Source: Eubacteriales bacterium
Lineage (GTDB): Bacteria; Bacillota; Clostridia; Oscillospirales; CAG-272
Direction of reading: 5' to 3'
Assembly (NCBI GenBank): GCA_045631585.1
Contig: JAZQUX010000190.1
Coordinates: 1-50,546, forward strand
DNA: 50,546 bases
Positions 502-20,353 of this stretch are shown here, in pieces; position 1 is the first letter of the stretch, and each line of letters starts with the position of its first letter. The notes under the pieces were generated by a model. That model was not told the origin of the DNA, searched no databases, and was given only the letters and a program-made list of their open reading frames with translations. Made by a program: the position numbers and the translations under genes.

Positions 502-750
502 GATTTTACTTTTGTGCAAAAATATTTTGTATTTTCTTCTCTTAAGGTAAGATTGTGCAAACAAAAGACAAAAAAATAAAGCCAATTCAAGACAATTGTC
601 CCCGAAACGGCAAAAAAACAAAGCCCCATCGGAACGCCCGACAAGGCAAATGCGACTCATTTTGAAAAAATCAATAAAGCCATATAATATAATTTTATGT
701 TAAAAATAAATAAAATAGGGTACACAGGGTATTTTTTTGACGAGATTCCG

Positions 751-792
751 ATAAAAAAGAAAAGTCCCGAAGCAGCATAACCGCTCCGAGAC
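751..792 (-). terminator. Intrinsic terminator after the HTH gene
   Basis: Minus strand has GUCUCGGAG / CUUCGGGAC, a 9-bp stem (2 G-U pairs) with an 11-nt loop, followed by UUUUCUUUUUUAU. Confidence 0.65.
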
Positions 793-808
793 CATTTCAA
801 ATATTAAT

Positions 809-1024
809 TCAGTCGTCCTCATCAGGAACATACTCGATGATATCACCGGGTTGACAGTTCAACAGCTCACACACCTTGTTCAGGCAATCCCCGTAAACGA
901 CATTTCCGCTCCGAATAAGCTGTATTTGGCTTTCCCCGAGCAATCTATCCTTCCGCATACGATAAGAGCTGTATCCCGCCTCTTTGAGCGCCTGAAGCAC
1001 ATCTATCTTGTATTTGATAGCCAT
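809..1024 (-). CDS. XRE/Cro-type helix-turn-helix regulator (71 aa)
   Basis: Internal ATG at 1024 of track ORF 809..1312, with AAAGGAGA RBS. Sequence MAIKYKIDVLQALKEAGYSSYRMRKDRLLGESQIQLIRSGNVVYGDCLNKVCELLNCQPGDIIEY matches the short HTH family ending ...L.C.PGDI.EY. It has its own consensus promoter and is divergent from the small-gene island. Confidence 0.75.
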   Translation of the reverse strand: MAIKYKIDVLQALKEAGYSSYRMRKDRLLGESQIQLIRSGNVVYGDCLNKVCELLNCQPGDIIEYVPDEDD

Positions 1025-1055: not shown

Positions 1056-1084
1056 ATTATATCATATATATGCACCGAAGTCAA
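1056..1084 (-). promoter_or_regulatory. Sigma-A consensus promoter for the HTH gene
   Basis: Minus strand TTGACT (1084-1079), 17 nt spacer, TATAAT (1061-1056). Confidence 0.7.
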
Positions 1085-1126
1085 GTGTACAAAATAACCA
1101 AATTGCAACGCCTCTTTTTGTGCACC

Positions 1127-1141
1127 TATACAAAGTGTATA
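1127..1141. promoter_or_regulatory. Palindromic operator candidate between the divergent promoters
   Basis: TATACAAAGTGTATA is a perfect 6-bp-arm palindrome. A related half-site GTGTACA at 1085-1091 abuts the -35 of the minus promoter. Confidence 0.4.
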
Positions 1142-1158
1142 TTTTTGCTGAAAAACTA

Positions 1159-1187
1159 TTGACAAACACCGAAATATGGTGTATAAT
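1159..1187 (+). promoter_or_regulatory. Sigma-A consensus promoter of the small-gene island
   Basis: TTGACA (1159-1164), 17 nt spacer, TATAAT (1182-1187). Confidence 0.75.
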
Positions 1188-1299
1188 GGTGCCAACAAGT
1201 TAAGACACGGACACCGTTGGTAGCCCGTTAACAGCTTGAAATTTTGCCAAAAATTGGCAATTTTAAACGATGCAAATATTAAAAAAAGGAGAAACAAAA

Positions 1300-1491
1300 A
1301 TGACAAACACACAGAACACCATCACAGACAAGATGTACGCAGACTTTATAAAGGAAGCGATAAAGAAAGAAGGTTGGAAAACAGCCGACATCGCAAACAA
1401 AATGGCGCTTGAAACCGAAGCAATCACACTCGACCAATACAGAATGGCGGCACAGATAATTGTAGCAGCTTATAAGAAAGAAAATTGGTAA
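1300..1491 (+). CDS. Hypothetical small protein (63 aa)
   Basis: ATG at 1300 preceded by AAAGGAGA RBS (internal start of track ORF 1270..1491). First gene after P1159. Confidence 0.65.
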   Translation: MTNTQNTITDKMYADFIKEAIKKEGWKTADIANKMALETEAITLDQYRMAAQIIVAAYKKENW

Positions 1492-1505
1492 GGAGGTAAA
1501 CAAAA

Positions 1506-1691
1506 ATGACAAAAACTGAAAAATGTTATCGCGTAAAACACACCGATTCGAGCGGTTTGCAGTACTTTGATGTTGAGTTAGTAGGGCAGAAAGCTTTAGA
1601 AGGTTATTTATGGTTTTTGGAGTGCAGATTTGGTCAGAGAGTAAAAGAAACCGCATTAGTTGAAGAATACACTATTAACATCTATCAGTAA
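1506..1691 (+). CDS. Hypothetical small protein (61 aa)
   Basis: AAGGAGG RBS 7 nt upstream. Same operon. Confidence 0.65.
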   Translation: MTKTEKCYRVKHTDSSGLQYFDVELVGQKALEGYLWFLECRFGQRVKETALVEEYTINIYQ

Positions 1692-1742
1692 CTACCACAC
1701 CGAGCCGGGCGGTTAATCCCGGCAGAAAGAGAGGTAAAGAAA

Positions 1743-1928
1743 ATGATTAAAGGAATGATTAAAACGCTCAATGTAGCGATGTACGCAGGTGAGATAAGCT
1801 TTGATTGCGTAAGAGACCTGCTTGCACAATTAAGCAAATTGACAGGCAAGGAATACGACATCGTTAATCGCAGAGTAATCGTTAAAGACGAATACGGGAA
1901 AATACACGATGCATATGTGTGGGCTTAA
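1743..1928 (+). CDS. Hypothetical small protein (61 aa)
   Basis: AGAGAGG RBS. Same operon. Confidence 0.6.
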   Translation: MIKGMIKTLNVAMYAGEISFDCVRDLLAQLSKLTGKEYDIVNRRVIVKDEYGKIHDAYVWA

Positions 1929-2050
1929 TTCAGCCACAAGGAACACAAGCAGAGCAGCTCTCCCTCGGGAGAGTTAATGCGGACAGGCAGACGGTTGCAA
2001 TCCCCGAGAGCCGCGCAAATAAAATTGTTTTTTGAAGGAGAAAAGAAAAA

Positions 2051-2524
2051 ATGATTATCGACCTTATTTTAAATCGAAAAGACGGCGACGACTACAGCGC
2101 AAACAAATTCTACCACGACATTCTCGAATACGATGCGATTTTCGACGGCATAGCCACAGACATCCTTCGTGCGTTAGACTCAGGCACAGAGCAAGATGTG
2201 AAAGCAGCACTTTGCGATTACATCACAAGAAACGAATACAATCCTGCCATCTGCGAATATGTAAATTCGGTCAATTGGCTCCCCGAAGAGCTAACCCCTA
2301 AATACACAATTAAATCGATTAGCGAAGAAGGAACATACTTCCTTGTCAACGGTTGGAGAAAGCACCAAAAGCTTTGGATTTCAAAGGACGAAGTCAAGAA
2401 GGATTTAAACAGGGCAATGTCAATGTTTTTCGACAGCGCCGCACAAGCGAAAGCGAGTCTGACAAAGCTCCTGAAGATAATGCCGGAATACGCTACCGAT
2501 AAATTTGAAATCGTTGTTTTTTAA
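2051..2524 (+). CDS. Hypothetical protein (157 aa)
   Basis: GAAGGAGA RBS. N-terminus MIIDLILNRKDGDDYSANKFYHDILEY resembles, from memory, an uncharacterised family in Firmicutes phages/ICEs. The competing track ORF 2032..2301 is an R/H-rich off-frame artefact. Confidence 0.7.
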   Translation: MIIDLILNRKDGDDYSANKFYHDILEYDAIFDGIATDILRALDSGTEQDVKAALCDYITRNEYNPAICEYVNSVNWLPEELTPKYTIKSISEEGTYFLVNGWRKHQKLWISKDEVKKDLNRAMSMFFDSAAQAKASLTKLLKIMPEYATDKFEIVVF

Positions 2525-2537
2525 GGAGGAATCAAAA

Positions 2538-2726
2538 ATGGCAAAGTCAACAAAGGCATACGCAAAAGAAGTACTCGACATATGGAAAAAAGAATCAGTC
2601 CTGTTCAACGCAGGTTTGAACGAAGCGCAGTTTCAGCTAATCCTTGAAGGCTACGGAATAAGAACGGCAGATGCAATCTGCATAACAATGGCCTGTGTAG
2701 TTGCAGGCGCAAAATTCAAAGACTAA
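2538..2726 (+). CDS. Hypothetical small protein (62 aa)
   Basis: ATG at 2538 with AAGGAGG RBS (internal start of track ORF 2505..2726). Confidence 0.65.
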   Translation: MAKSTKAYAKEVLDIWKKESVLFNAGLNEAQFQLILEGYGIRTADAICITMACVVAGAKFKD

Positions 2727-2821
2727 TATCCCGACAGGTGATAGCAACGGCGAAAGCCGTTGTAACCCGGCGCTCAAAAATCTAAAGCATTGAGCGGGAA
2801 AATCAACAAAGGAGAATAAAA

Positions 2822-3013
2822 ATGGCAACAATAACCATATCAGCTATGTGGGCAAAAGCCTATATGCGTTTCCTCAAGGATGTCGGCGTACAAGCCCTCT
2901 GCGAGTATAACAGCGAATCCGACACGATGACTTTCACTGTTGCTGAAGAGGACGAAATCCGCACCCGAGAATGGAATCCGAGACATTACGCAAAATATAT
3001 GGAAAGGAGATAA
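2822..3013 (+). CDS. Hypothetical small protein (63 aa)
   Basis: AAGGAGA RBS. Confidence 0.65.
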   Translation: MATITISAMWAKAYMRFLKDVGVQALCEYNSESDTMTFTVAEEDEIRTREWNPRHYAKYMERR

Positions 3014-3016
3014 AAG

Positions 3017-3256
3017 ATGAATACCGCCCTGAAAAAGATGGAAGATTTCGCAAGAAACGTTCTGAAACTTCCTACAGAGGCTCAAAACGAGCTTTTCAAA
3101 ACCCTTGAAGAAACACTTACCCCCGATGAGGTAAAGGGCTTAAAAGGGCTTGTAGGGCTCTACAGACTACACACAGACCTGAAATACTACAAGGCAATCG
3201 AAAACGCCCTTGCCGAACAGCTTTATAACGAATTCAATAAGGAGGAACAGCAATGA
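3017..3256 (+). CDS. Hypothetical small protein (79 aa)
   Basis: AAAGGAGA RBS. Starts 4 nt after the upstream stop. Confidence 0.65.
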   Translation: MNTALKKMEDFARNVLKLPTEAQNELFKTLEETLTPDEVKGLKGLVGLYRLHTDLKYYKAIENALAEQLYNEFNKEEQQ

Positions 3257-3375
3257 CATTCAGAGAAGCTTTTGAAGCATTCCTCGAGATGAAGGGATAC
3301 CGAACCGTAGCCGCAATCGCAGGAATTTGCACAGCGATATATTTCGCCGCATTAACCGCATCCGTACTTATGTAA
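3253..3375 (+). CDS. Small membrane-type protein (40 aa), not in the ORF track
   Basis: ATG overlaps the upstream stop (ATGA) and has an AAGGAGGA RBS. Sequence MTFREAFEAFLEMKGYRTVAAIAGICTAIYFAALTASVLM has a hydrophobic C-terminal half. Confidence 0.5.
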   Translation: MTFREAFEAFLEMKGYRTVAAIAGICTAIYFAALTASVLM

Positions 3376-3379
3376 CCCC

Positions 3380-3408
3380 TTGACAAACCCGAAACAATTC
3401 TGTATAAT
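3380..3408 (+). promoter_or_regulatory. Second sigma-A consensus promoter inside the island
   Basis: TTGACA (3380-3385), 17 nt spacer, TATAAT (3403-3408). Confidence 0.7.
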
Positions 3409-3437
3409 AAACTCAAACACAAAAGGAGAACAAAAAA

Positions 3438-3710
3438 ATGAAAAAAGAAATCACAGCCCTTGTAGAAAGTAAGGAAGGAACACTCAAGATTAATCAGTAT
3501 TGCACCCTCCACCGTTGGACTTGGGCAGGCACAAAAGTTGACGCGTTAGAAGTAAGATTTGATTTAATCAGCATATCAAGCCACACATACGAAATCCACT
3601 CCCGTGATTGGCAGGGCATCGTAGAAGAGATTAAAGAAGCACAGACGAAAGCATTTGCGGATACCGCAAACCACTACAATAAGGTCTTGAGCAACGGATA
3701 TATAGGTTAA
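3438..3710 (+). CDS. Hypothetical protein (90 aa)
   Basis: AAAGGAGA RBS. First gene after P3380. Confidence 0.65.
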   Translation: MKKEITALVESKEGTLKINQYCTLHRWTWAGTKVDALEVRFDLISISSHTYEIHSRDWQGIVEEIKEAQTKAFADTANHYNKVLSNGYIG

Positions 3711-3726
3711 TAAGGAGAACAAAAAA

Positions 3727-3951
3727 ATGAAAACACTTAAAAAAATAACAGCCTACCGCATCGAATTAGAAAACGGACACTACTGCGATATCACCGAAAG
3801 GGGAAACAACGAATACGACTTTTGGCTATACCACAAAGAATACGGAACAGCAACCTATATGTTCTGTATCAAGGCAAACAGCGAGGAAGAAATAATAGAA
3901 TTAGCAACCGCCAACGCACCCGACTATTACGACTTCATCGACAAAGATTAA
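3727..3951 (+). CDS. Hypothetical protein (74 aa)
   Basis: AAGGAGA RBS. Last plus-strand gene before the bidirectional terminator. Confidence 0.65.
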   Translation: MKTLKKITAYRIELENGHYCDITERGNNEYDFWLYHKEYGTATYMFCIKANSEEEIIELATANAPDYYDFIDKD

Positions 3952-3964
3952 ACTAAACAACAAA

Positions 3965-3999
3965 GCTCCGAGGAGAAATCCCCGGAGCCTTCTTTTTTT
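3965..3999. terminator. Bidirectional intrinsic terminator between convergent operons
   Basis: GCTCCG...CGGAGC stem followed by CTTCTTTTTTT on the plus strand, preceded by AACAACAAA (U-rich on the minus strand). Confidence 0.6.
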
Positions 4000-4327
4000 A
4001 TTCCACTTTGTTTTGCTGTTCCCCGCTGACGGGACCAAACTTCCAACCCCTGAAAGCTACATCCCACTTCTTCTTAACTTCCTTGATAAGCTTCGAAAGT
4101 AAAGCCTCGGAAACGTTAAACTTAATCGACACCGATGTCAGGGTATCCTTTGTCAGCATTCCGTAAAAGACCGCACCGACATACTCGTCAGCTACCGTTG
4201 CCGAAATCAGCAGGAAGAGTCTGTCTCTGAATTCTTCCGTCTGATATGCAGGATTAAGGCATACCCCGTCAATCAATTGATTTTTCTCCCTCGATATCCA
4301 ATCCCTCTGTTTGTTCCTTGAGTACAT
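3998..4327 (-). CDS. Putative late transcription regulator (sigma-70 region-4-like / RinA-ArpU-like HTH), 109 aa
   Basis: GAGGTGG RBS. The segment ...VFYGMLTKDTLTSVSIKFNVSEALLSKLIKEV... resembles region-4 type HTHs. It is the last gene of the early operon, the usual place for late activators. Confidence 0.45.
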   Translation of the reverse strand: MYSRNKQRDWISREKNQLIDGVCLNPAYQTEEFRDRLFLLISATVADEYVGAVFYGMLTKDTLTSVSIKFNVSEALLSKLIKEVKKKWDVAFRGWKFGPVSGEQQNKVE

Positions 4328-4415
4328 ATACGACCACCTCTATTCCGTCATTATGAAATGTAAAAGCAGCGAATCAATCACCGAATATTCAATATACATA
4401 TTTTTTCTCCTTTAT

Positions 4416-4661
4416 TTACTTTTTTCTCCCTCGAGAGCGCTCATCAATTGCCTTCTTGAGCTTGTTGTGCTTGCCTTTTCGCACCATCCCGTATGCCCAA
4501 TCTTGTATTTTGATTTTCCGCACCTTTTCGTTTTTCGCTCTTCGAGCTGCCTGCTCGTCAAAATAATCTTTGCAAGTTGAATGGCAAACCATCGTCCGTT
4601 TGGGGCATTCATAGCAAACCGATTCCCCAAAATTCAATCCCTTATTCGTTTTTCCCGTCAT
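4416..4661 (-). CDS. Cys-rich small protein (81 aa)
   Basis: ATG at 4661 (internal start of track ORF 4416..4703). Sequence MTGKTNKGLNFGESVCYECPKRTMVCHSTCKDYF... has a basic C-terminus. Confidence 0.6.
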   Translation of the reverse strand: MTGKTNKGLNFGESVCYECPKRTMVCHSTCKDYFDEQAARRAKNEKVRKIKIQDWAYGMVRKGKHNKLKKAIDERSRGRKK

Positions 4662-4830
4662 GCAAGAACACCTTGTACGACTTAATGTCAACACGATCCG
4701 CATCCATCATACTCTTGACACGGTGCTTGACGACAGCAGGGTAATCCTTTCGGATAAACTTCTCGTCAAGATTTGTCTTGATTACCTCGGTAACTTCAAT
4801 TGTGTAAATAACTGTGGTTTCTTTATTCAT
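4642..4830 (-). CDS. Hypothetical small protein (62 aa)
   Basis: ATG at 4830 with AAAGGAGA RBS. Overlaps the upstream stop by 8 nt. Confidence 0.6.
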   Translation of the reverse strand: MNKETTVIYTIEVTEVIKTNLDEKFIRKDYPAVVKHRVKSMMDADRVDIKSYKVFLHDGKNE

Positions 4831-5125
4831 TTTCTTTTCTCCTTTCACCGTAACTGCAATAATGTGTTGGCTTTACCGCAAATCCGCTGTAATTGCAAGA
4901 TAGCATCTCATTTCCTGTAATAGCACAAATGCGTGTTTCTCGATATTTGCAATCCTTGCACCGCACAACCTCAACCACATCAGCTTCAGGAGCATCATCA
5001 ACCATATCGAAAACAAAATCAACATCACAGCTTCTGCATCTGATTCCGTCGTTGTTATTGCATCCTTCACAATAATCTGATTTCAATCTTTCAATTAAAG
5101 CATCCGCATCAATATACCTTGCCAT
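4823..5125 (-). CDS. Cys-rich hypothetical protein (100 aa)
   Basis: GGTGGTG RBS. Several CxxC-like pairs (CEGC, CRSC, CKDC). Confidence 0.65.
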   Translation of the reverse strand: MARYIDADALIERLKSDYCEGCNNNDGIRCRSCDVDFVFDMVDDAPEADVVEVVRCKDCKYRETRICAITGNEMLSCNYSGFAVKPTHYCSYGERRKENE

Positions 5126-5264: not shown

Positions 5265-5653
5265 TCCGCACCGCCTTTCAACGCCCTTTCAGCATCCTCA
5301 CGGGAGAGGAATACTGTTTTGCCGATAAGCAAATCTATCCTATTCCTTATTTCTGTTTTGCCATACCACAACTCATTGCTAACAACCGTTATCCACTCTT
5401 TCGGCGTAGTATATAAATTATATTCGAAGTGTGTTATGATTCCACTTACAACGCTATCAGATGTGCGGTCAACGATATACACAGCATCCCCCGCCTTGCA
5501 AGGCAACAGCACAACCCCGTTCTCAAGCAGGTAGTCGGCAATAAACTCTGCACCCCTTGGAGAATCTATGAGAGAATCTATATCGCCACACACAGCATTA
5601 AGGATTTGCTGTATTTCTGCTTGCTTCAACAGCTTAATCAACCTCTCACGCAT
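5261..5653 (-). CDS. Hypothetical protein (130 aa)
   Basis: ATG at 5653 with GGAAGGTG RBS. The track start at 5662 is GTG. Confidence 0.65.
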   Translation of the reverse strand: MRERLIKLLKQAEIQQILNAVCGDIDSLIDSPRGAEFIADYLLENGVVLLPCKAGDAVYIVDRTSDSVVSGIITHFEYNLYTTPKEWITVVSNELWYGKTEIRNRIDLLIGKTVFLSREDAERALKGGAE

Positions 5654-6338
5654 TGTCAGCACCTTCCTTCTCCGTCATTTCTCCGCCCCATTGTTCTGCC
5701 ATTGCTTGTGCTATGCCCTCAAAGGTCTTGCTTGCATCCTTTGCATTATGTGCCACGCCTCTGCTACCTCCTCGCCCTTTTGCAAAGCCTCCCGTATTGC
5801 TTGGCAAAAACGGCTTATATTCGTTCAAAATGTTTGTAGGAATTAACTTCGGTAACCCTTTCAGCCACAACAATGTGCGTTTGGAAAAAGGATGCCCAAA
5901 TTGATACGGCTGAATTACTTGAGATTTTTTAGGCAAGCCTACAACCTTTAAAGGTGTCGGATTTTCAACACAAATTCTTTCACAATCAGCTTCAAGAAAA
6001 GTCATAAAAAATTCTTTCGCCTTCGAAGCCATCTCAAGCCTTTCTTGGTTAATATTGCCTGCCGTTAAATACATAAACCTCGCCCCTGCTTTGCTCATAT
6101 ATGTACACGGCGGATGAGCAATAATCATATCCCATCTTCCGTCAATGGTATGCTTTGCTCCGTCCATCGTCACAAATTCGCATCCGCCATTGATAAGCGG
6201 TATAACATCTTGCATTATATGCCATTCGGGATGCCCACCCGAGCATTCAATAATGTCACAAGAATATGCTTCGTGTCCTTTCGCACGAAAAGCCTTGCAT
6301 ACCGCTTGGCTCTCTTCACAAGCTACAAGTACTCTCAT
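5646..6338 (-). CDS. Short DNA cytosine-C5 methyltransferase-like protein (230 aa)
   Basis: PC motif IIAHPPCTYMS and ENV-like motif VENPTP. Non-canonical N-terminal motif I region (VLVACEESQAV). Confidence 0.65.
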   Translation of the reverse strand: MRVLVACEESQAVCKAFRAKGHEAYSCDIIECSGGHPEWHIMQDVIPLINGGCEFVTMDGAKHTIDGRWDMIIAHPPCTYMSKAGARFMYLTAGNINQERLEMASKAKEFFMTFLEADCERICVENPTPLKVVGLPKKSQVIQPYQFGHPFSKRTLLWLKGLPKLIPTNILNEYKPFLPSNTGGFAKGRGGSRGVAHNAKDASKTFEGIAQAMAEQWGGEMTEKEGADNA

Positions 6339-6745: not shown

Positions 6746-6963
6746 ACAATCTCCACCTCGCATTCATCAGACACAAGCCAATTAAGTGACACAAGACTTT
6801 TTTCCGCTCTGCTAACCGTCCGCTTATCCTCGGGTATCTTAATCAGCCTATATTCGGTAAAATAATACACATTATCCGTCTTTTGATTCTTTAAGCGGAA
6901 TCGCTGATACTTCTTCAATTTGAGTCTGTGCCTTATCAGGAATACAATAAGTCTCTTAATCAT
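6742..6963 (-). CDS. Basic hypothetical protein (73 aa)
   Basis: ATG at 6963 overlaps the methyltransferase stop by 8 nt. Its own stop overlaps the next ATG (ATGA). Confidence 0.45.
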   Translation of the reverse strand: MIKRLIVFLIRHRLKLKKYQRFRLKNQKTDNVYYFTEYRLIKIPEDKRTVSRAEKSLVSLNWLVSDECEVEIV

Positions 6964-8614
6964 TCTTTTCACCATCCTTAACACATCGAATCAGATGCCG
7001 TATGGTCTCGATTGTCCACCCATTCCCGAGCAACTTATAAGCCTGTGTATCCGACACCGGGAATTCATACCATTCAGGTACTGTCTGCAACCGCATACAC
7101 TCTCTGACCGTCAGCTTGCGGATGATATAGAATCCGTCAACAAGCTTTATCGGATACTCCTTGCCCTTGATGGTAATCTTGCCGTCCTTGACTTCGTAAA
7201 CGATATACACCTTGCCATCCGCACAGGACACCGCCTTGATAGGTTTTCCGTCTTCGTCCCATTCACACGGTGTAGCATAGCCACATCTCATCGGCTCATC
7301 AATCTGTATGGCATACAACCCTGTTTTACCACCTGCGCCACCGCCACCGCTTGTCAGATTAACAGACTTGCCCTCGACATCATAGACTCTAAAAGCCTGA
7401 CTATTCCTTATCTCTCCATCAGGCGAAGGCATACAACCTACACGAACAGGCTCTGCTACGCCCGTTGCAGAATGCCCACCGTTTGTTATAAAATTCGCCA
7501 TTCCTTGCTTTGCATAGCTCGCTTTTATAGTGTGAGCAAATCCATCCACAGTAACATTGACAGGCTCGGCAACATAATCAAACACCTGCTTGTTCGGATT
7601 GTCGGGGAAAGCATCGCAAGCCAAACTTCCTTCACCACTACCTTTGTGAGCATAGCTTGCACTAATTGGTCTCGATTTGTCTTCCACTCCGTATTCGGGA
7701 ATCCTTACAGTCTCTGCCACCCCCGAAGCCCCATAAGTTGAAGTGTAACAGCATATATTTGCTATGCTTGTCTGCTGATATTGTGCTTTTATCGTTTGAG
7801 ACTTTCCGTCTTTGGTAAGATTGACAGGCTCTGCTACACTCTGCTTACCCATAAAACCGCTTGTCGCAATATCCATACATCTGTCTCGCTGTGAGCAAGC
7901 AACATAACCGCTCGTCAAAGTCCTCGATTTATCTCGTCCCATAGGGCAGACAGGCTCTGCCACAGCAAGCCGTTGCCCGCTTTGCTTTTGAAGACTTGTA
8001 AAATTTCCGCCCTTAAAATAGTTGGCATCTATACAACCTTGTTTATCTCGCCACGCATATCCGCCTTCCAACACATCCCTCAACAAAATCCCTCTGTCCT
8101 CCGGCTGCGGCACATCCACCTTTGAATAAGTCCCATCCACATTCCTGCGACCAACCCAATACAGCCTCTGTCTGTTCTGTGCTGACACTAATGCCGAATT
8201 AATGCATATCGGCTCAAACCCAAACGCATCGGAAATACTCTCCCGAATCGCCTTTGACATAGACTTGTTATTTTCGTAAATAAACCACTTCGGCTTCGCT
8301 TCCTTCAATGCTCTTACATACTGACAGAACAGTTCCCAACCAAGTCCACTTGCTTCGGTCTCCCTGTTATTCTTCTGTGCAATGCTCCAATATGTACAAG
8401 GACTACCGCCTATCAGCCAATCAAATCCCTCGAACTCGGTAAAATTACCATCAAACACATCGCCCCTCTGCTCAATATCGGGAAAGTTATGTACCGCTGT
8501 CTTAACGGCATAGCCATCAATTTCATACGCCACATATCTGTCTATCGGAATGTCCTCAAGCATCATCGCAATATGCCCACAAGCCATCCCATCATATAAG
8601 CTTAATATATTCAT
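6956..8614 (-). CDS. DNA cytosine-C5 methyltransferase with five tandem TRD-like modules (552 aa)
   Basis: Motif I LSLYDGMACG, motif IV GGSPCTYWS, motif VI ENNKSM, motif VIII QNRQR, motifs IX/X RKLTVRECMRLQTVP...LLGNGW. Between VIII and IX there are five repeats beginning [VA]AE[PT]V at aa 218, 260, 299, 348 and 386, most followed by K-S-x-T-[LI]-type TRD signatures. Confidence 0.85.
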   Translation of the reverse strand: MNILSLYDGMACGHIAMMLEDIPIDRYVAYEIDGYAVKTAVHNFPDIEQRGDVFDGNFTEFEGFDWLIGGSPCTYWSIAQKNNRETEASGLGWELFCQYVRALKEAKPKWFIYENNKSMSKAIRESISDAFGFEPICINSALVSAQNRQRLYWVGRRNVDGTYSKVDVPQPEDRGILLRDVLEGGYAWRDKQGCIDANYFKGGNFTSLQKQSGQRLAVAEPVCPMGRDKSRTLTSGYVACSQRDRCMDIATSGFMGKQSVAEPVNLTKDGKSQTIKAQYQQTSIANICCYTSTYGASGVAETVRIPEYGVEDKSRPISASYAHKGSGEGSLACDAFPDNPNKQVFDYVAEPVNVTVDGFAHTIKASYAKQGMANFITNGGHSATGVAEPVRVGCMPSPDGEIRNSQAFRVYDVEGKSVNLTSGGGGAGGKTGLYAIQIDEPMRCGYATPCEWDEDGKPIKAVSCADGKVYIVYEVKDGKITIKGKEYPIKLVDGFYIIRKLTVRECMRLQTVPEWYEFPVSDTQAYKLLGNGWTIETIRHLIRCVKDGEKND

Positions 8615-8832
8615 TCAGCATCCTCCGCAAAAATCCTTCGATTTCTAAAATCCACCTTAATAACATTACACCGCATAGCCTTGTCAAGCAAAGGCGGCAA
8701 CTCCGAATTGAAGTACTTCCACCTCGCCTCATTATATTCTACACCTTCACCGACCTGTATGCCGTTTACGTATACATCAAACAGTTCGTCACCCCCGACC
8801 ATCTCGAGGAAGTCAAACACCGCTATTTTCAC
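8611..8832 (-). CDS. Hypothetical protein (73 aa, GTG start)
   Basis: AGGAGAG RBS upstream of GTG at 8832. ATGA-type overlap with the downstream methyltransferase. Confidence 0.55.
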   Translation of the reverse strand: MKIAVFDFLEMVGGDELFDVYVNGIQVGEGVEYNEARWKYFNSELPPLLDKAMRCNVIKVDFRNRRIFAEDAE

Positions 8833-8851
8833 TTTGCTCTCCTTTCAACCT

Positions 8852-9157
8852 TGTACCCTACTGTACCCACCTTGTACCCGACACCCAAAAACCAACAAAT
8901 CCAAGAATAACTCAATCCGCAAGGTGCGTACCCTATGTACCCTATAAATTCTCTCGCGCGTATGAGAGAAAATGTATTGTTAGATTTCTGTCAATACACA
9001 GAGAGATGTATATATATATGTGTAAAATATTTTTTGGTGGGTACATCGGGTACAGTACCGATTTTTGTATACCTTGCATAATTTTCAGTACCACCCATTC
9101 CCGATACACCCTCTTTTTCTGTGCACTCTGCACAAATCCTGCGTACCCTTTGTACCC
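8852..9157. repeat. Iteron cluster / candidate replication origin
   Basis: [TC]GTACCC starts at 8852, 8862, 8873 (10-11 bp phasing), 8927, 8936, 9142 and 9151. Inverted GGGTACA at 9039 and 9048. AT-rich stretch 9006-9036. Hairpin TTCTCTC/GAGAGAA at 8949-8970. This is the only ~330-bp non-coding gap in the replication operon, directly 3' of the helicase gene. Confidence 0.6.
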
Positions 9158-9160
9158 GAT

Positions 9161-11026
9161 TCACCCTTCATTTTCGCTCTCTGTGTCGTAATAATCGGGT
9201 AATTCGGGCGTTCTTTCGCCCAAATAAAGGCACACGCAGTTAGTCAAAACACCGTTCACTCTGCTCTTTTTTGTGCGTTTTCCCTCCTCACAAGTCAGAT
9301 AACCTTGTCTCTTTGCCCACGCAAGGAAGGATGACGGATTGTAGCCTTGTGCACTCATCTCTCGGTCGAACACGGATTTTATTATGTAAACGCAATCAGG
9401 CTCATACTTGCCCCAAACCTCTCCCGGATACATATCAAACTTGTTTGCTCTAAAGTGATTCGGATTCATCGCACAAAGCTCGCAAATGTAATCATACGCC
9501 CTGACATTAATGTCAACCTCGCTCTTCTTGGACATTAAAGATGCTATATCATCAACCGTCAGCGCATAATCATCTTTGAATATCCACTCCGTAGCGATAG
9601 CATCCGCTGTCAATAAGATAGATGCCGAAGCAGCCTGCTTTTCCGTTGAGTCATACTTGAGTAATTCCTGATAGAATTCCTTCTGCAACGTACTTACAAA
9701 CTCAACCGAGCCCGCATATCGGAACATTTCAATAAACTTCTCACCTGCAAAGCCGTAATTTTCCTTGATAACATCGCATATCCCAACAAGGTCAGAGTAA
9801 ACCTTTTCGAAGCACTCAAACTCTATGATACGGTTAACAGCACCACCGTTTGAATTGCTGTTTGATATAGGCTGTTCGCCGTTGGTTATAAAACAGCAAC
9901 GCCACTTGTTCTGCGCTTGCAGACCGCCCGTCTTTGTGCCTCTCGTCTTTCCGACACCCTCACAAAGCTGATATATCATCTTGTCGAAATCCTTAACACC
10001 CGATGCAACCTGAATCTGTAATTCGTCAATGCACATAGGCAAACTGTTAAGAAAAGCCGCTGTCATTTCCTGACCTACGCCCGTGCTATTAAATGTGGTA
10101 ATGTACTCGCCCATCTTTGGAGACCCCCACACCGATGCCGCAATCATAAGTCCGACACTCTTGCCTAATCCCGTCCCACCCCACGAATGAAGGAAAAACG
10201 GAAGAAGTCCGCAAGGCTCAAGAAGTACACTTGCAAAGGATGCCGCAAGAAATAACCTACCTATAGTTTTTTCTGCTCTCATCTTGCGCATAGCCTCAAG
10301 CCATTTGTCGTAGCTACCGTGACTCTGTACCGCATTGAACATCCCTCTGAAACTGTTCTCCCCGTCAAAGGTAAGCCCTTCGACATAAGGAGCAAATCCG
10401 TGACCGCCCACCCATCCGAGTCGGGAAACAGACTTCTGCTCGGGGATAAGGCTGTAATTAAACTGTTCCATTTTAAAAAGGTAATTGGAAAGCTCCTTCG
10501 CATTGACGGAGTTAACCATAACCCCATCGTCCGAAAGCTCAAGAATGCTACTCGCAGAACTTATAACACTCTTTGGGACAATAATCTTCTTCCATTCATA
10601 ACCTTTCTTGAAAGCTATCTCAAGCCGTTCCTTACCGCTGTCAACATTGCATAATCGTCTGACAGGCAAAATCGGATGGTCGCACACGCAAACTTCAAAC
10701 CCGAATTGGTTAATGTATCGAACGCCGTAATCATCGCAAGTGTAAAACCCGGAGGAAAGCTCCAATTCCTGCCCGTCAAACCTTGTCGCATTCTCAACGC
10801 TCTGCTTCTGTTCCTTTTTGGACAGCAGAAACCCTTTCCAAAGCGACATAAACTTTTTAACGCCAACACTTGCCGCCTGCTCACGCATAAGCTCTATCAT
10901 TTGCTCAAGCAGAAAAACATTACCGATATAATTATATAAAAACTCGTACGGCACAGACGTGCTTATATAATCGTCTTTGGTGTAGTCGGGAATATCCCGA
11001 AGCACCAAATTTGTATTCTCATTCAC
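9161..11026 (-). CDS. DUF927-type replicative helicase / primase-associated ATPase (621 aa, GTG start)
   Basis: Walker A HSWGGTGLGKSV, with IDELQ downstream. The N-terminal half resembles DUF927. The GTG start overlaps the upstream stop by 8 nt. Confidence 0.7.
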   Translation of the reverse strand: MNENTNLVLRDIPDYTKDDYISTSVPYEFLYNYIGNVFLLEQMIELMREQAASVGVKKFMSLWKGFLLSKKEQKQSVENATRFDGQELELSSGFYTCDDYGVRYINQFGFEVCVCDHPILPVRRLCNVDSGKERLEIAFKKGYEWKKIIVPKSVISSASSILELSDDGVMVNSVNAKELSNYLFKMEQFNYSLIPEQKSVSRLGWVGGHGFAPYVEGLTFDGENSFRGMFNAVQSHGSYDKWLEAMRKMRAEKTIGRLFLAASFASVLLEPCGLLPFFLHSWGGTGLGKSVGLMIAASVWGSPKMGEYITTFNSTGVGQEMTAAFLNSLPMCIDELQIQVASGVKDFDKMIYQLCEGVGKTRGTKTGGLQAQNKWRCCFITNGEQPISNSNSNGGAVNRIIEFECFEKVYSDLVGICDVIKENYGFAGEKFIEMFRYAGSVEFVSTLQKEFYQELLKYDSTEKQAASASILLTADAIATEWIFKDDYALTVDDIASLMSKKSEVDINVRAYDYICELCAMNPNHFRANKFDMYPGEVWGKYEPDCVYIIKSVFDREMSAQGYNPSSFLAWAKRQGYLTCEEGKRTKKSRVNGVLTNCVCLYLGERTPELPDYYDTESENEG

Positions 11027-15884: not shown

Positions 15885-15913
15885 TTGACAAAATCGGGTA
15901 TCTATGCTATAAT
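15885..15913 (+). promoter_or_regulatory. Sigma-A consensus promoter antisense to the early operon
   Basis: TTGACA (15885-15890), 17 nt spacer, TATAAT (15908-15913). The -10 is bracketed by the inverted repeat TATCTAT (15899-15905) / ATAGATA (15914-15920). Confidence 0.65.
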
Positions 15914-17329: not shown

Positions 17330-17497
17330 TTACTTTTTGATTTGCGTTTCAAAAGCCTCAAGGTCAGTTTCCTTGATGCGGTAAAACTTTCCGACCTTGA
17401 ATGCGGTCAAACGCTTGTCTCTTATCCACCCCCAAACGGTGGCAAGCTTTACGCCGTATCTTTCAGCGATTTCTTCACAAGTGTAAATTTTCTTCAT
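17330..17497 (-). CDS. Excisionase-family (HTH_17-type) DNA-binding protein, 55 aa, not in the ORF track
   Basis: ATG at 17497 with TAAGGAGGA RBS. Sequence MKKIYTCEEIAERYGVKLATVWGWIRDKRLTAFKVGKFYRIKETDLEAFETQIKK matches the MerR/Xis-like winged HTH pattern. First gene of the leftward early operon (Cro/Xis-like role). Confidence 0.7.
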   Translation of the reverse strand: MKKIYTCEEIAERYGVKLATVWGWIRDKRLTAFKVGKFYRIKETDLEAFETQIKK

Positions 17498-17525: not shown

Positions 17526-17554
17526 TTGACTTTTGTTTTGTTTAGTGGTATAAT
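17526..17554 (+). promoter_or_regulatory. Rightward sigma-A promoter (extended -10) facing the leftward early promoter
   Basis: TTGACT (17526-31), 17 nt spacer, TATAAT (17549-54) preceded by TGG (TGnTATAAT). Confidence 0.65.
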
Positions 17555-17771: not shown

Positions 17772-18089
17772 ATGTTTTGGGAAAACTTTTATTCGCTATG
17801 CGAAAACAACAATGAAAAACCGCTTAATGTTGTAACAAAGTTATCTATCGGTCATGGGTCTATAACAAAATGGAAAAATGGGGCTGTTCCTAATGGGAAA
17901 AACCTTCAAAAAATAGCCGACTACTTTAATGTAAGTGTCGACTACCTCTTGACAGGGCAAAAAGAAACGCCCACCGCAGAAGGCGATGAGCGTAAAACGG
18001 AGCTTATGAAATTGTTTAGCCTGCTTGACGATGCAGGTCAGGATGCTCTGATTGCGATTGCACAACAAATGAAGAAGCAAGACAAATAA
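17772..18089 (+). CDS. XRE-family HTH repressor-like protein (105 aa)
   Basis: AGGAGGA RBS. ...VVTKLSIGHGSITKWKNGAVPNGKNLQKIADYFNVSVDYLLTG is a classic Cro/CI HTH. Confidence 0.8.
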   Translation: MFWENFYSLCENNNEKPLNVVTKLSIGHGSITKWKNGAVPNGKNLQKIADYFNVSVDYLLTGQKETPTAEGDERKTELMKLFSLLDDAGQDALIAIAQQMKKQDK

Positions 18090-19291: not shown

Positions 19292-20353
19292 ATGCCCACG
19301 ATAAAGCAACTCCCGAGCGGTAACTACAACACCCTCATATACGACTTCACCGACCCGAATGGCAAAAGACACTATAAATCAATAACAGCTCCGTCAAAAA
19401 AGGAAGTAAAACTTCTTGTGGCGGAGTTTCTTGCGAGTAGGGAAGAACGAAAGGAAACACCCGACATCACCGTAAGAACGGCAATTGAACAATATGTCGA
19501 AGCTAAAAGCAATGTGCTGTCCCCGGCAACCTTGAGAGGCTATGATGTAATACTTCGCAATCGTATGAAGCGGATAATGGATATACCAATTTCAAAACTG
19601 TCATTGTCTGATATTCAGCTTGCTGTAAACGATGATTCGGAAAAACTCACACCAAAAACTGTCAGAAATACAAGCTCACTCGTGAGGTCGGCAATCCTTT
19701 TCGCAGCACCCAACTTCAGCTACAAAGTTACCTTGCCACAAAAAATAAAATCTGAAATCAAAATCCCGACAGAAGAGGAGATGCTCTGCATATTCAAGAA
19801 AGCCAAGGGAACAAACCTTGAAACAGCGATTTACCTTGCCGCAATGTGCGGTATGCGTAGAAGCGAAATCGTTGCCTTGAAGTGGTCGGATGTGGACCTC
19901 AAGAGCGGAATAATTAATATACGCCAAGCTGCCGTTCCCGACAGAAAAAACAAAACTGTTATCAAGACTACAAAAAACACATCAAGTACCCGGAGCATAA
20001 AAGTATTTACGCCCGTTCTCGCCCATCTAAAAACATTACCGCATAACACAGAAGCCGTGCAAGAATTCACTTCGCCAAACAGCATCACGGACGGATTTGC
20101 AGAATTGCTCAAAAGAAACGGAATCCCGCATTACCGATTCCACGATTTAAGACACTATGCCGTTTCGACTATGCTCTTGCTCAACATCCCCAAAAAGTAC
20201 ATAGCCGATTATGTCGGACACGAAACAGAGCATATGATAGACACAGTTTACGGACACATTATGCGAGATAAAAAAGATGACCTTATGGATGTCGTAAACG
20301 CTCATTTTTGCGATTTTTCAGCACAAATGCAAAACGAAATGCAAAACGAATAA
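19292..20353 (+). CDS. int: Tyrosine integrase
   Basis: 353 aa with ...GMRRSEIVALKWSDVD... and ...YRFHDLRHYAVSTML...GHETEHMIDTVYGHI (R / H-x-x-R / Y pattern). The att core lies 18 nt downstream. Confidence 0.9.
   Translation: MPTIKQLPSGNYNTLIYDFTDPNGKRHYKSITAPSKKEVKLLVAEFLASREERKETPDITVRTAIEQYVEAKSNVLSPATLRGYDVILRNRMKRIMDIPISKLSLSDIQLAVNDDSEKLTPKTVRNTSSLVRSAILFAAPNFSYKVTLPQKIKSEIKIPTEEEMLCIFKKAKGTNLETAIYLAAMCGMRRSEIVALKWSDVDLKSGIINIRQAAVPDRKNKTVIKTTKNTSSTRSIKVFTPVLAHLKTLPHNTEAVQEFTSPNSITDGFAELLKRNGIPHYRFHDLRHYAVSTMLLLNIPKKYIADYVGHETEHMIDTVYGHIMRDKKDDLMDVVNAHFCDFSAQMQNEMQNE
20325..20350 (+). repeat. 26-nt direct repeat, copy 1 (arm-site candidate, overlaps the integrase 3' end)
   Basis: AAATGCAAAACGAAATGCAAAACGAA, itself a tandem of AAATGCAAAAYGA. 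Matches 20544-20569 at 25 of 26 positions. Confidence 0.8.

Follow-up and report, generated by a model that had tools for sequence, protein, structure and literature searches.

A putatively repressor-gated, hypervariable accessory-gene island with a predicted twister ribozyme in a temperate phage of gut Clostridia

The contig JAZQUX010000190.1, referred to here as the window (the whole stretch of 50,546 nucleotides that was analysed), carries close to its left end an island of ten small genes on the plus strand, next to a divergently transcribed gene for a helix-turn-helix (HTH) protein. The 50.5 kb of the window make up a whole phage genome in circularly permuted form; the phage is tailed and temperate, and with moderate confidence we regard the island as an autonomous accessory-gene unit, gated by a repressor and set in a fixed slot of this phage of gut Clostridia.

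Layout of the island and exchange of its cargo

The genes, promoters, and terminators of the island are given below (ORF, open reading frame; aa, amino acids; RBS, ribosome-binding site; pI, isoelectric point; dN/dS, ratio of nonsynonymous to synonymous substitution rates). L018, L025, and L029 are close relatives of the phage.

763–793, minus strand: intrinsic terminator of the HTH transcription unit, a 14-bp stem followed by a T-run
809–1024, minus strand: HTH gene, 71 aa, Cro/C1-type, monocistronic, Pfam family HTH_26 (PF13443)
1084–1056, minus strand: HTH promoter, TTGACT-17-TATAAT, 11/12 consensus, with a TG extension
1159–1187, plus strand: promoter P1, 12/12 match to TTGACA-17-TATAAT, kept in L025 and L029
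1300–1491, plus strand: ORF1, 63 aa, with RBS and ATG, 90% identical in L018 and 86% in L029, dN/dS 0.07–0.20
1506–1691, plus strand: ORF2, 61 aa, a cassette missing from L018, L025, and L029
1743–1928, plus strand: ORF3, 61 aa, a cassette in whose place L029 has a different ORF of 48 aa
2051–2524, plus strand: ORF4, 157 aa, a fusion of an N domain (residues 1–80, five helices) and a C domain (81–157, alpha/beta)
2538–2726, plus strand: ORF5, 62 aa, 81% identical in L018, dN/dS 0.10
2822–3013, plus strand: ORF6, 63 aa, a cassette missing from L018
3017–3256, plus strand: ORF7, 79 aa, predicted helical, 84% identical in L018
3253–3375, plus strand: ORF8, 40 aa, small hydrophobic (membrane) peptide, hydropathy maximum 1.98, homologues a3 (L025) and b7 (L018)
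3380–3408, plus strand: promoter P2, 12/12 match to TTGACA-17-TATAAT
3438–3710, plus strand: ORF9, 90 aa
3727–3951, plus strand: ORF10, 74 aa, acidic (pI 4.7), a mobile cassette, dN/dS 0.19
3962–3991, both strands: bidirectional intrinsic terminator, common to the island and the convergent early operon

An earlier note, made from the letters of the window, had described two perfect promoters at 1159 and 3380, and both were found there; the consensus promoter that it ascribed to the HTH gene at 1056–1084 is present as well, yet one position short of perfect. The whole window holds four perfect TTGACA-17-TATAAT matches, compared to 0.04 expected from shuffled sequences. For weak promoter-like sites there was no excess within the first 6 kb (12 sites versus 12.0 expected), and the three island promoters are exceptional in quality only. 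A gene caller that requires an ATG and a Shine-Dalgarno sequence yields exactly ten plus-strand ORFs of 40–157 aa, matching the ten with RBSs that the note had described, and the public record calls all of them as genes. Across the five gene pairs that can be compared with relatives (ORF1, 4, 5, and 10), dN/dS amounts to 0.07–0.25, which corresponds to purifying selection. The genes neighbouring the island are all located on the minus strand, and it was equally confirmed that the island ORFs oppose every neighbouring operon and end at a bidirectional terminator. The minus-strand form of this terminator was found by a scan, whereas on the plus strand UUCUUUUUUU comes directly after a hairpin with a folding energy of −15.6 kcal/mol (z −3.8); judged by these letters, the terminator is bidirectional. 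The composition of the island resembles that of its flanks (39–44% versus 38–47% guanine plus cytosine), and the adenine–thymine skew, which tracks the coding strand, turns to the plus strand over 1200–3900.

The comparison of the slot was carried out with L018, L025, and L029, whereby L029 ends after the start of the island. L025 is the closest genome record, a contig from a metagenome-assembled genome of the Acutalibacteraceae, whose large terminase gene (terL) is 99.6% identical to that of the window. Its late genes are 95.6% identical, the HTH protein 97%, and the right-hand neighbour of the island (109 aa) 99%. Nevertheless, the L025 island comprises seven genes, of which two are related to the ten of the window, namely one for a protein with only the C-terminal half of ORF4 (63% identity) and one for a small membrane peptide like ORF8. 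Similarity between the two DNAs returns at three places only: at P1 with the operators and the 5′ untranslated region (UTR), in a 69-nt stretch around P2 (93%), and at the terminator. The P2 stretch is deleted in L018 (terL 90%), which retains ORF1, 4, 5, and 7, lacks ORF6, carries a 96-aa ORF in place of ORF2–3, and has ORF8–10 together with P2 replaced by a lipoprotein-like ORF (lipobox LTSC) and a membrane peptide. In L029, where the HTH protein is again 97% identical, the order is ORF1, a conserved hairpin, the different 48-aa ORF, and a twister. Since the flanks are near-identical and the regulator, the promoters, and the terminator are kept, whereas nearly all of the cargo differs, the island constitutes a hypervariable slot, which answers the comparison with related phages that the earlier note had proposed in advance. 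Cargo is thus exchanged between conserved regulatory and RNA elements among otherwise near-identical phages.

The slot is filled in L018, L025, and L029. Copies of ORF10 with 86% identity neighbour a serine recombinase in another prophage, at its far end (L015–L017). More distant phages (terL 53–56%, including L026 and L027) also have a divergent island of small genes adjoining the small terminase gene (terS). In L027 (terL 56%) this analogous island spans 7063–9420 and starts with a consensus promoter that carries two ATACGG-CAGA-CCGTAT dyads, the putative inverted-repeat operators of this island, followed by a 56-aa leader ORF, a twister, and genes for PcfK-like and PcfJ-like proteins; a separate promoter precedes its 58-aa ribbon-helix-helix-like gene. 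The literature searched for PcfJ and PcfK gave nothing useful.

In these features the island resembles the morons of lambdoid phages, which also have their own promoters and terminator, a fixed site between conserved genes, variable content, and independent transcription. It differs from them in being a multi-gene array with a dedicated repressor instead of a single unregulated gene, in that the slot is occupied in all three close relatives, although L029 ends after the start of the island, and in that its composition equals the rest of the genome.

What the cargo encodes is less evident. Searches of ORF1–10 against Pfam, PHROGs, and PDB sequences (ten ORFs concatenated) and of five window ORFs against NCBIfam returned nothing above noise, and none of the ten matched any of 5027 PADLOC defence-system models, which upholds the description of these ORFs as having no recognisable function. 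Eleven cargo proteins of the relatives likewise found no match in Pfam, PHROGs, or PDB sequences. The cargo has pI values of 4.7–7.9, charge and size are unremarkable, and most of the proteins are soluble and have no signal sequence. A small membrane peptide is encoded in all three complete islands (window, L018, and L025), and L018 additionally has an acidic lipoprotein.

The most tractable of the cargo proteins is ORF4, whose N and C domains are also found alone or in other fusions. The C domain is common to the window, L018, and L025, and is nearly invariant at 25 positions. Structure models of ORF4, the sole ORF modelled, are confident (predicted local distance difference test of 93 for the C domain and 83–95 for the N domain). 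In Foldseek searches the C domain found no significant neighbour in the PDB (best E 0.77) and, in BFVD, matched only uncharacterised small phage proteins, and the N domain, a confident five-helix bundle, found no neighbour in the PDB. The family of the C domain comprises 120 representative clusters among 1.84 billion proteins; fusion partners were sought as clues, and none of the few long proteins with this domain has a Pfam domain. A tblastn search of ORF4 against GenBank phages gave no match. With a confident fold, strong conservation, and no annotated neighbour in the PDB or BFVD, the C domain presents a concrete target for functional work.

Considering the class of cargo as a whole, host-interaction factors under an arms race are the likeliest class, and their functions are most likely a mixed bag. 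An anti-defence role of the island is plausible, and counter-defence is the leading single candidate for the cargo of P1, albeit a tentative one. The stricter form of this idea, that most or all of the cargo inhibits host immunity (CRISPR-Cas, restriction-modification, CBASS, Thoeris, or others) with the HTH protein as a brake of the anti-CRISPR-associated (Aca) type on a strong early promoter, appears possible if doubtful. The small size of the proteins, several of which are acidic, and the extreme turnover of cargo among near-identical phages would fit it, as would the two orphan DNA methyltransferase genes of the adjoining early operon, which point to restriction pressure. The likeness to anti-CRISPR (Acr), anti-restriction, anti-CBASS, or anti-Thoeris proteins that the earlier note had in mind was found neither by sequence (Pfam, PHROGs, and PDB sequences) nor, in the case of ORF4, by fold, as its models have no structural neighbour among solved anti-defence proteins. 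Moreover, the membrane peptides and the lipoprotein suit envelope functions better than those of intracellular inhibitors, and the position of ORF10 copies at a prophage end by an integrase or recombinase is typical for lysogenic conversion.

These last points are in turn what would be expected if the island as a whole were a lysogenic-conversion (moron) island, expressed in the prophage and protecting or modifying the lysogen by superinfection exclusion, abortive-infection-type defence, or envelope changes. Retention of the membrane peptide in the window, L018, and L025, the lipobox of the L018 lipoprotein, the location of ORF10 homologues next to an integrase in another prophage, and the own promoters and terminator of an island transcribed against both flanking lytic operons all agree with it. 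We nevertheless regard it as rather unlikely, given that the cargo is mostly soluble and devoid of signal sequences, that the defence-system models found nothing, and that the composition is the same as in the rest of the phage. For individual cassettes the picture is different: those for the membrane peptides and the lipoprotein are likely to act in the envelope or in superinfection exclusion, while lysogen-protecting or envelope functions of the cargo in general seem somewhat unlikely.

The HTH regulator and its predicted operators

The divergent 71-aa HTH gene that had been reported beside the island was confirmed as a member of HTH_26 (E 4.9e-12; 46.4 bits against a curated cutoff of 22). 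It has a dN/dS of 0.11, and the L018 protein is 40% identical to it. Apart from this family there was a weak VanU-like match, far under the cutoff, and no match to Aca chains among PDB sequences at E up to 1. Exact-sequence look-ups with the HTH protein of the window and with the 109-aa right-hand neighbour gave no additional contigs. In order to describe the putative binding sites, HTH homologues (33–65% identical) were gathered from 14 viral and 80 metagenome loci. Upstream of these homologues three TACAC-N9-GTGTA dyads recur, about 135, 95, and 65 nt ahead of the HTH start. The last dyad encloses the HTH promoter's −35, and a divergent promoter contains the first. Dyads with at most one mismatch reach a density of 4.0 per kb in 62 non-redundant upstream regions, compared to 0.12 per kb in all fetched DNA; 22 of the 62 regions have at least two dyads and 10 at least three, in three position classes. 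Allowing one mismatch at most, the 50.5 kb of the window contain four sites of this unit, also written TRCAC-N9-GTGTA, and three of them cluster at 1071–1183, with a spacing of about 44–50 bp:

1071–1089: O3, predicted operator TGCAC-N9-GTGTA, covering the −35 of the HTH promoter, in a position class (−70/−60) that is kept in homologous loci
1121–1139: O2, predicted middle operator TGCAC-N9-GTGTA, holding most of the palindrome 1127–1141
1165–1183: O1, predicted operator AACAC-N9-GTGTA, fitting exactly between the −35 and −10 elements of P1

The TATACA-AAG-TGTATA palindrome that had been noticed between the two promoters does exist (TATACAAAGTGTATA, with a single occurrence in the window), but it lies at 1127–1141 instead of 1126–1140, one base off, and belongs to the larger TRCAC-N9-GTGTA unit. 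TATACA-N3-TGTATA as the operator unit was rejected, as the unit that is conserved across loci is the N9 dyad. A generic count of inverted repeats (5-nt arms, any spacer) did not separate real from shuffled sequence and was replaced by the TACAC-N9-GTGTA test. The spacer of P2, a copy of the P1 core, contains a degenerate copy of the operator (AACCC-N9-CTGTA) with three mismatches, from which it follows that P2 is probably regulated weakly or not at all. In L018, with its divergent HTH protein, TTCAC half-sites with N8 spacing occupy the same three positions, and between L018 and the window the half-sites shift together with the recognition helix. A fourth operator-like dyad, TACAC-N9-GTGTG with one mismatch, occurs at 1903–1921, within ORF3 at its 3′ end and 27 nt ahead of the twister, and could be due to chance.

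The location of O1 in the P1 spacer and of O3 over the −35 of the HTH promoter implies repression of P1 as well as autorepression. As the operators overlap both promoters, keep their position across loci, and change their half-sites with the recognition helix, the HTH protein is very probably a repressor of both P1 and the HTH promoter, and such a dual repressor would be the most economical reading of the comparative footprinting. A promoter built for repression by a constitutively made regulator is at odds with steady prophage expression of ORF1–8, as the lysogenic-conversion explanation would have it. In favour of that explanation, P2 has only the degenerate operator, and none of the immunity-region repeats (GTGAATTT type) occur at the island promoters, so that silencing of the island in the lysogen would not be required.

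The earlier note had compared this arrangement with the known organisation of acr–aca operons, and this comparison holds in part. As in those operons, a strong constitutive-type promoter precedes small, fast-evolving accessory genes, a small HTH repressor is predicted from the operator positions to act on inverted repeats that overlap the promoter, and an early burst followed by shut-off, as described there (PMC6765145, PMC9410906, PMC8633003), would be expected for the island. The 5′ UTR contains a hairpin, likewise a conserved feature of acr–aca1 operons (PMC13551039). However, aca genes normally share an operon with the acr genes and follow them in it (PMC8633003, PMC9410906), whereas the regulator of the island is divergent and monocistronic, a unit apart that is bounded by a promoter and a terminator of its own, which makes the alleged match to the known organisation inexact. 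Further differences are the three predicted operators, one of which covers the promoter of the regulator itself, a predicted ribozyme within the operon, an HTH protein without sequence similarity to solved Aca proteins, and cargo unrelated to known Acr proteins. Because of the divergent monocistronic regulator with its tripartite operator, membership among acr–aca operons is not established, and it is reasonable to say by analogy that the island may work like an Aca-gated accessory operon. For a dedicated anti-defence operon this has two sides: strong host-type promoters and a repressor with promoter-overlapping predicted operators follow the same logic as Aca repression (PMC6765145, PMC9410906), while a divergent regulator that resembles no solved Aca protein does not.

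The genes that face the HTH homologues elsewhere, about 70 in number, are mostly unknown small ORFs. A single one of them is an ArdC-type anti-restriction gene (with an amidoligase), which would speak for anti-defence cargo; other isolated cases are integrases or invertases, RecE-like exonucleases, an endolysin, and HNH nucleases.

Three similar dyads between divergent promoters, with the outer sites on the promoters and autoregulation to be expected, are also reminiscent of OR1–3 of phage lambda. The HTH gene and its tripartite operator might accordingly be the relic or second copy of a Cro/CI-like immunity switch, with the small ORFs as ordinary early genes of an acquired module. Some HTH homologues indeed head long operons with RecE-like exonuclease genes, and twisters of other phages often lie one or two small ORFs past the divergence point of the early operon. 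Still, we consider such an origin very unlikely, as a complete immunity region and lysogeny module already exist elsewhere in the phage and even 95%-identical phages do not have their cargo in common, as they would ordinary early genes. In addition, no repressor-type gene stands opposite the HTH gene here or in 41 homologous loci, and the homologues were rejected as Cro partners of a CI repressor for the same reason. The island also differs from lambda OR in having one regulator gene with no CI-type partner facing it, in sites that are spaced apart and not adjacent, and in controlling accessory cargo while the lysis–lysogeny decision is encoded elsewhere.

The twister ribozyme and other RNA elements

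Besides its ORFs, the P1 transcription unit contains four structured elements, two of which (1700–1725 and 1948–2007) had been omitted from the earlier account of the island:

1244–1260, plus strand: palindrome or hairpin TTGCCAA-AAA-TTGGCAA, a perfect 7-3-7, in the 112-nt 5′ UTR and followed by UUUU
1700–1725, plus strand: hairpin CCGAGCCGGGCGG-TTAAT-CCCGGCAG, directly ahead of the RBS of ORF3
1948–2007, plus strand: predicted type-P5 twister self-cleaving ribozyme, Rfam RF02684, between ORF3 and ORF4
2727–2821, plus strand: structured spacer with three hairpins, between ORF5 and ORF6

In the window twister the helices P1, P2, and P4, the pseudoknots T1 and T2, and the conserved core nucleotides are all intact. 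Twisters are also present in four relatives: the homologous copies of L018 and L025 pass the Rfam gathering score with 37.9 and 64.2 bits, respectively, and further copies occur in L029 and L027. The P1 stem differs among the window, L018, L025, and L027, and the differences are fully compensated. For a covariation analysis, 42 unique sequences were assembled from the island copies and from 47 IMG/VR contigs found by pattern. All 42 preserve the pairing of both T1 and T2, with 5 and 7 different pair combinations, respectively. The window copy uses non-consensus yet compensated pseudoknot pairs (CA:UG in T2 and GA:UC in T1) and has one extra loop base, and on the grounds of this covariation we regard it as a functional subtype. 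Its predicted cleavage site, presumed from twister structures, lies between 1975 and 1976. The core, the helices, and both pseudoknots are the same as in the type-P5 twisters (RF02684) of Clostridia and phages; what sets the window copy in a defined context is its place between exchangeable cassettes, downstream of a putatively repressor-controlled promoter. Bacterial self-cleaving ribozymes have been reported near hypothetical and phage genes, which applies to the window as well, and the biological role of twister and related ribozymes in bacteria is still largely unknown (PMC8782182).

In other phages twisters usually lie one or two small ORFs past the point where the early operon diverges. 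Arrays occur too: L152 has three twisters at 3730–4838 with one or two small ORFs between them, in an island divergent from terS–terL as in the window, and L162 has two at 334–1012, separated by one or two small ORFs. A crude pairwise test showed that 81% of the locus pairs with homology adjacent to the twister share one side only, compared to 19–45% at control points 700–1200 nt away. Since the locus pairs are phylogenetically non-independent, this is only suggestive of twisters marking mosaic junctions.

The CCGAGCCGGGCGG/CCCGGCAG hairpin motif recurs in L025 (with a compensatory A–T pair), L029, L053, and 66 IMG/VR contigs (L163–L223), and its sequence is conserved far beyond what a plain stabilising hairpin needs. 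An ATG follows 5–19 nt downstream in 57 of 72 copies, and a same-strand twister lies within 3 kb in at least 10 instances by pattern, to which Rfam adds twisters in 3 more loci. No Rfam family matches the hairpin at 1700–1725. As a mosaic-junction hotspot it was not distinctive (51% one-sided pairs versus 0–50% at control points). The spacer at 2727–2821 has a minimum free energy of −27.6 kcal/mol (z −3.8 versus shuffles), is 97% identical in L018, and likewise belongs to no Rfam family. Hammerhead, pistol, hatchet, and twister-sister ribozymes were considered for both elements and rejected, as there was no Rfam match even at E up to 10. The 7-3-7 palindrome, which is single in the window, lies within a predicted fold, and is kept in L025 and L029, is a candidate for an attenuator or a protein site.

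Conserved structured elements at some cassette borders, together with short, mostly promoter-less ORFs behind a common promoter and turnover by cassette, make the island comparable to the cassette arrays of integrons. In contrast to integrons, there are no IntI-type integrase and no attC-like sites; the sole tyrosine integrase is that of the phage (19292–20353), and the border elements are a ribozyme, a hairpin on the RBS side, and promoters. Cassettes are presumably exchanged by homologous recombination, and the phage encodes RecT and an exonuclease. In this context it might be that the twister, possibly along with the CCGAGCCGGGCGG hairpin and the spacer 2727–2821, acts as functional punctuation of an integrase-free cassette array, a speculative thought to which we assign a low probability. 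At the RNA level, the polycistronic transcript would be cut or insulated in such a way that new cassettes are expressed and stabilised independently of their neighbours, and at the DNA level the elements, being common to many phages, would offer short homology for cassette swaps by RecT and exonuclease. If this were true, bacterial twisters would gain a defined role in organising the hypervariable accessory operons of temperate phages.

Returning to the repressor-gated accessory island as the reading that we favour, its operation may be pictured as follows. Once the phage DNA enters, the host sigma-A RNA polymerase would read P1, P2, and the HTH promoter without help from the phage. P1 would transcribe ORF1–8 and continue through ORF9–10, for which P2 would provide additional transcription. 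As the naked DNA enters, a burst from P1 would be expected, until the HTH protein made from its own promoter accumulates, binds the three TRCAC-N9-GTGTA operators, shuts P1 off, and limits its own synthesis. In the lysogen P1 would be held low, whereas P2 with its degenerate operator would probably escape and continue. The twister would cut the P1 transcript between ORF3 and ORF4 into a leader part and a cargo part, leaving a 5′-OH end on the downstream mRNA. We infer the timing and the repression from operator positions and comparative footprinting, and the processing of the transcript from homology and covariation.

Several observations weigh against this picture. Three close relatives underlie the comparison of the slot. 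For none of the cargo proteins was an informative homologue found, either in sequence searches or, for ORF4, by fold, and the genes opposite the HTH homologues are so heterogeneous that the regulator tells nothing about the function of the cargo. O2 overlaps neither promoter, so that activation or looping is possible. Finally, the window twister reaches 29.8 bits (E 0.0013), which is under the Rfam gathering score of 37.6, and the outer pair of its P2 helix is an A–G mismatch. Its low score can be explained by this mismatch together with the compensated non-consensus pseudoknot bases, which the covariance model does not credit.

Regulated hypervariable accessory islands and twisters in phage contexts are both already known kinds. 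What is new is that both come together in a single simple unit, and further the way in which the operators of this HTH family are arranged, a hairpin without an Rfam family, and, as a suggestion, ribozymes that mark cassette borders. With a promoter, a putative repressor, and exchangeable cargo around it, the role of the twister becomes directly testable. The island also offers a route to fast-evolving accessory, possibly counter-defence, genes in the almost uncharacterised phages of uncultured gut Clostridia, and further islands of this kind could be searched for by an HTH gene with TRCAC-N9-GTGTA operators, by the twister, and by the CCGAGCCGGGCGG hairpin.

The phage genome around the island

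The first 40 nt of the window repeat at 50329, and the terminal direct overlap amounts to about 218 bp (1–218 versus 50329–50546). Thus, the genome in the record is either circular and closed or terminally redundant, and it was cut inside the small terminase gene. The modules that define the position of the island are the following (SSB, single-stranded DNA-binding protein):

starting at 428, minus strand: small terminase gene (terS), spanning the record junction
about 17.2 kb down to 3998, minus strand: early operon with exonuclease, RecT, SSB, ERCC4 nuclease, primase/helicase, and two DNA methyltransferases
plus strand: lysogeny module with repressor-type HTH genes and the tyrosine integrase (19292–20353)
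48928–50274: large terminase gene (terL)

The island is located between the last early gene and terS, so that the early operon ends on one side of it and the late operon starts on the other, which bears out the placement given in the earlier note. The host of the phage is an Acutalibacteraceae-like gut bacterium. None of the cultured or annotated phages is a close relative; among GenBank phages, a human faecal contig without annotation has the most similar terL (55%), and the island DNA has no match there.

The two DNA methyltransferase genes of the early operon (5646–6338 and 6956–8614, minus strand) lie just right of the island, and no restriction gene was found beside them among the scanned early-operon ORFs. 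These orphan methyltransferases may serve self-methylation of the phage against restriction. The fourth perfect TTGACA-17-TATAAT promoter of the window (15885–15913, plus strand) is antisense and sits in a 250-nt gap of the minus-strand early operon. It has no convincing ORF downstream and may drive an antisense or small RNA.

In the immunity region two promoters, 17526–17554 (plus strand) and 17685–17657 (minus strand), point towards each other across about 130 bp, in which GTGAATTT/AAATTCAC repeats lie. One of these promoters serves a cI-like repressor gene of the RstR/DicA type (17772–18089) and the other a small MerR/excisionase-like HTH gene (17330–17497), a layout reminiscent of the convergent-promoter switches of P2/186-type phages. 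In the late region a single ORF of 3777 aa (23588–34921, minus strand) is unusually large for a 50-kb phage. Finally, the motif ATAGGGTACAC (at most one mismatch) occurs in four copies in the window, compared to 0.25 expected, at 715–725 (plus strand), 8926–8945 (minus strand, two overlapping copies), and 29156–29166 (minus strand). One copy lies between two terminators upstream of the small terminase gene, and additional copies occur in L025, where they lie at the right end of the island. The motif may be a site for a phage regulator.

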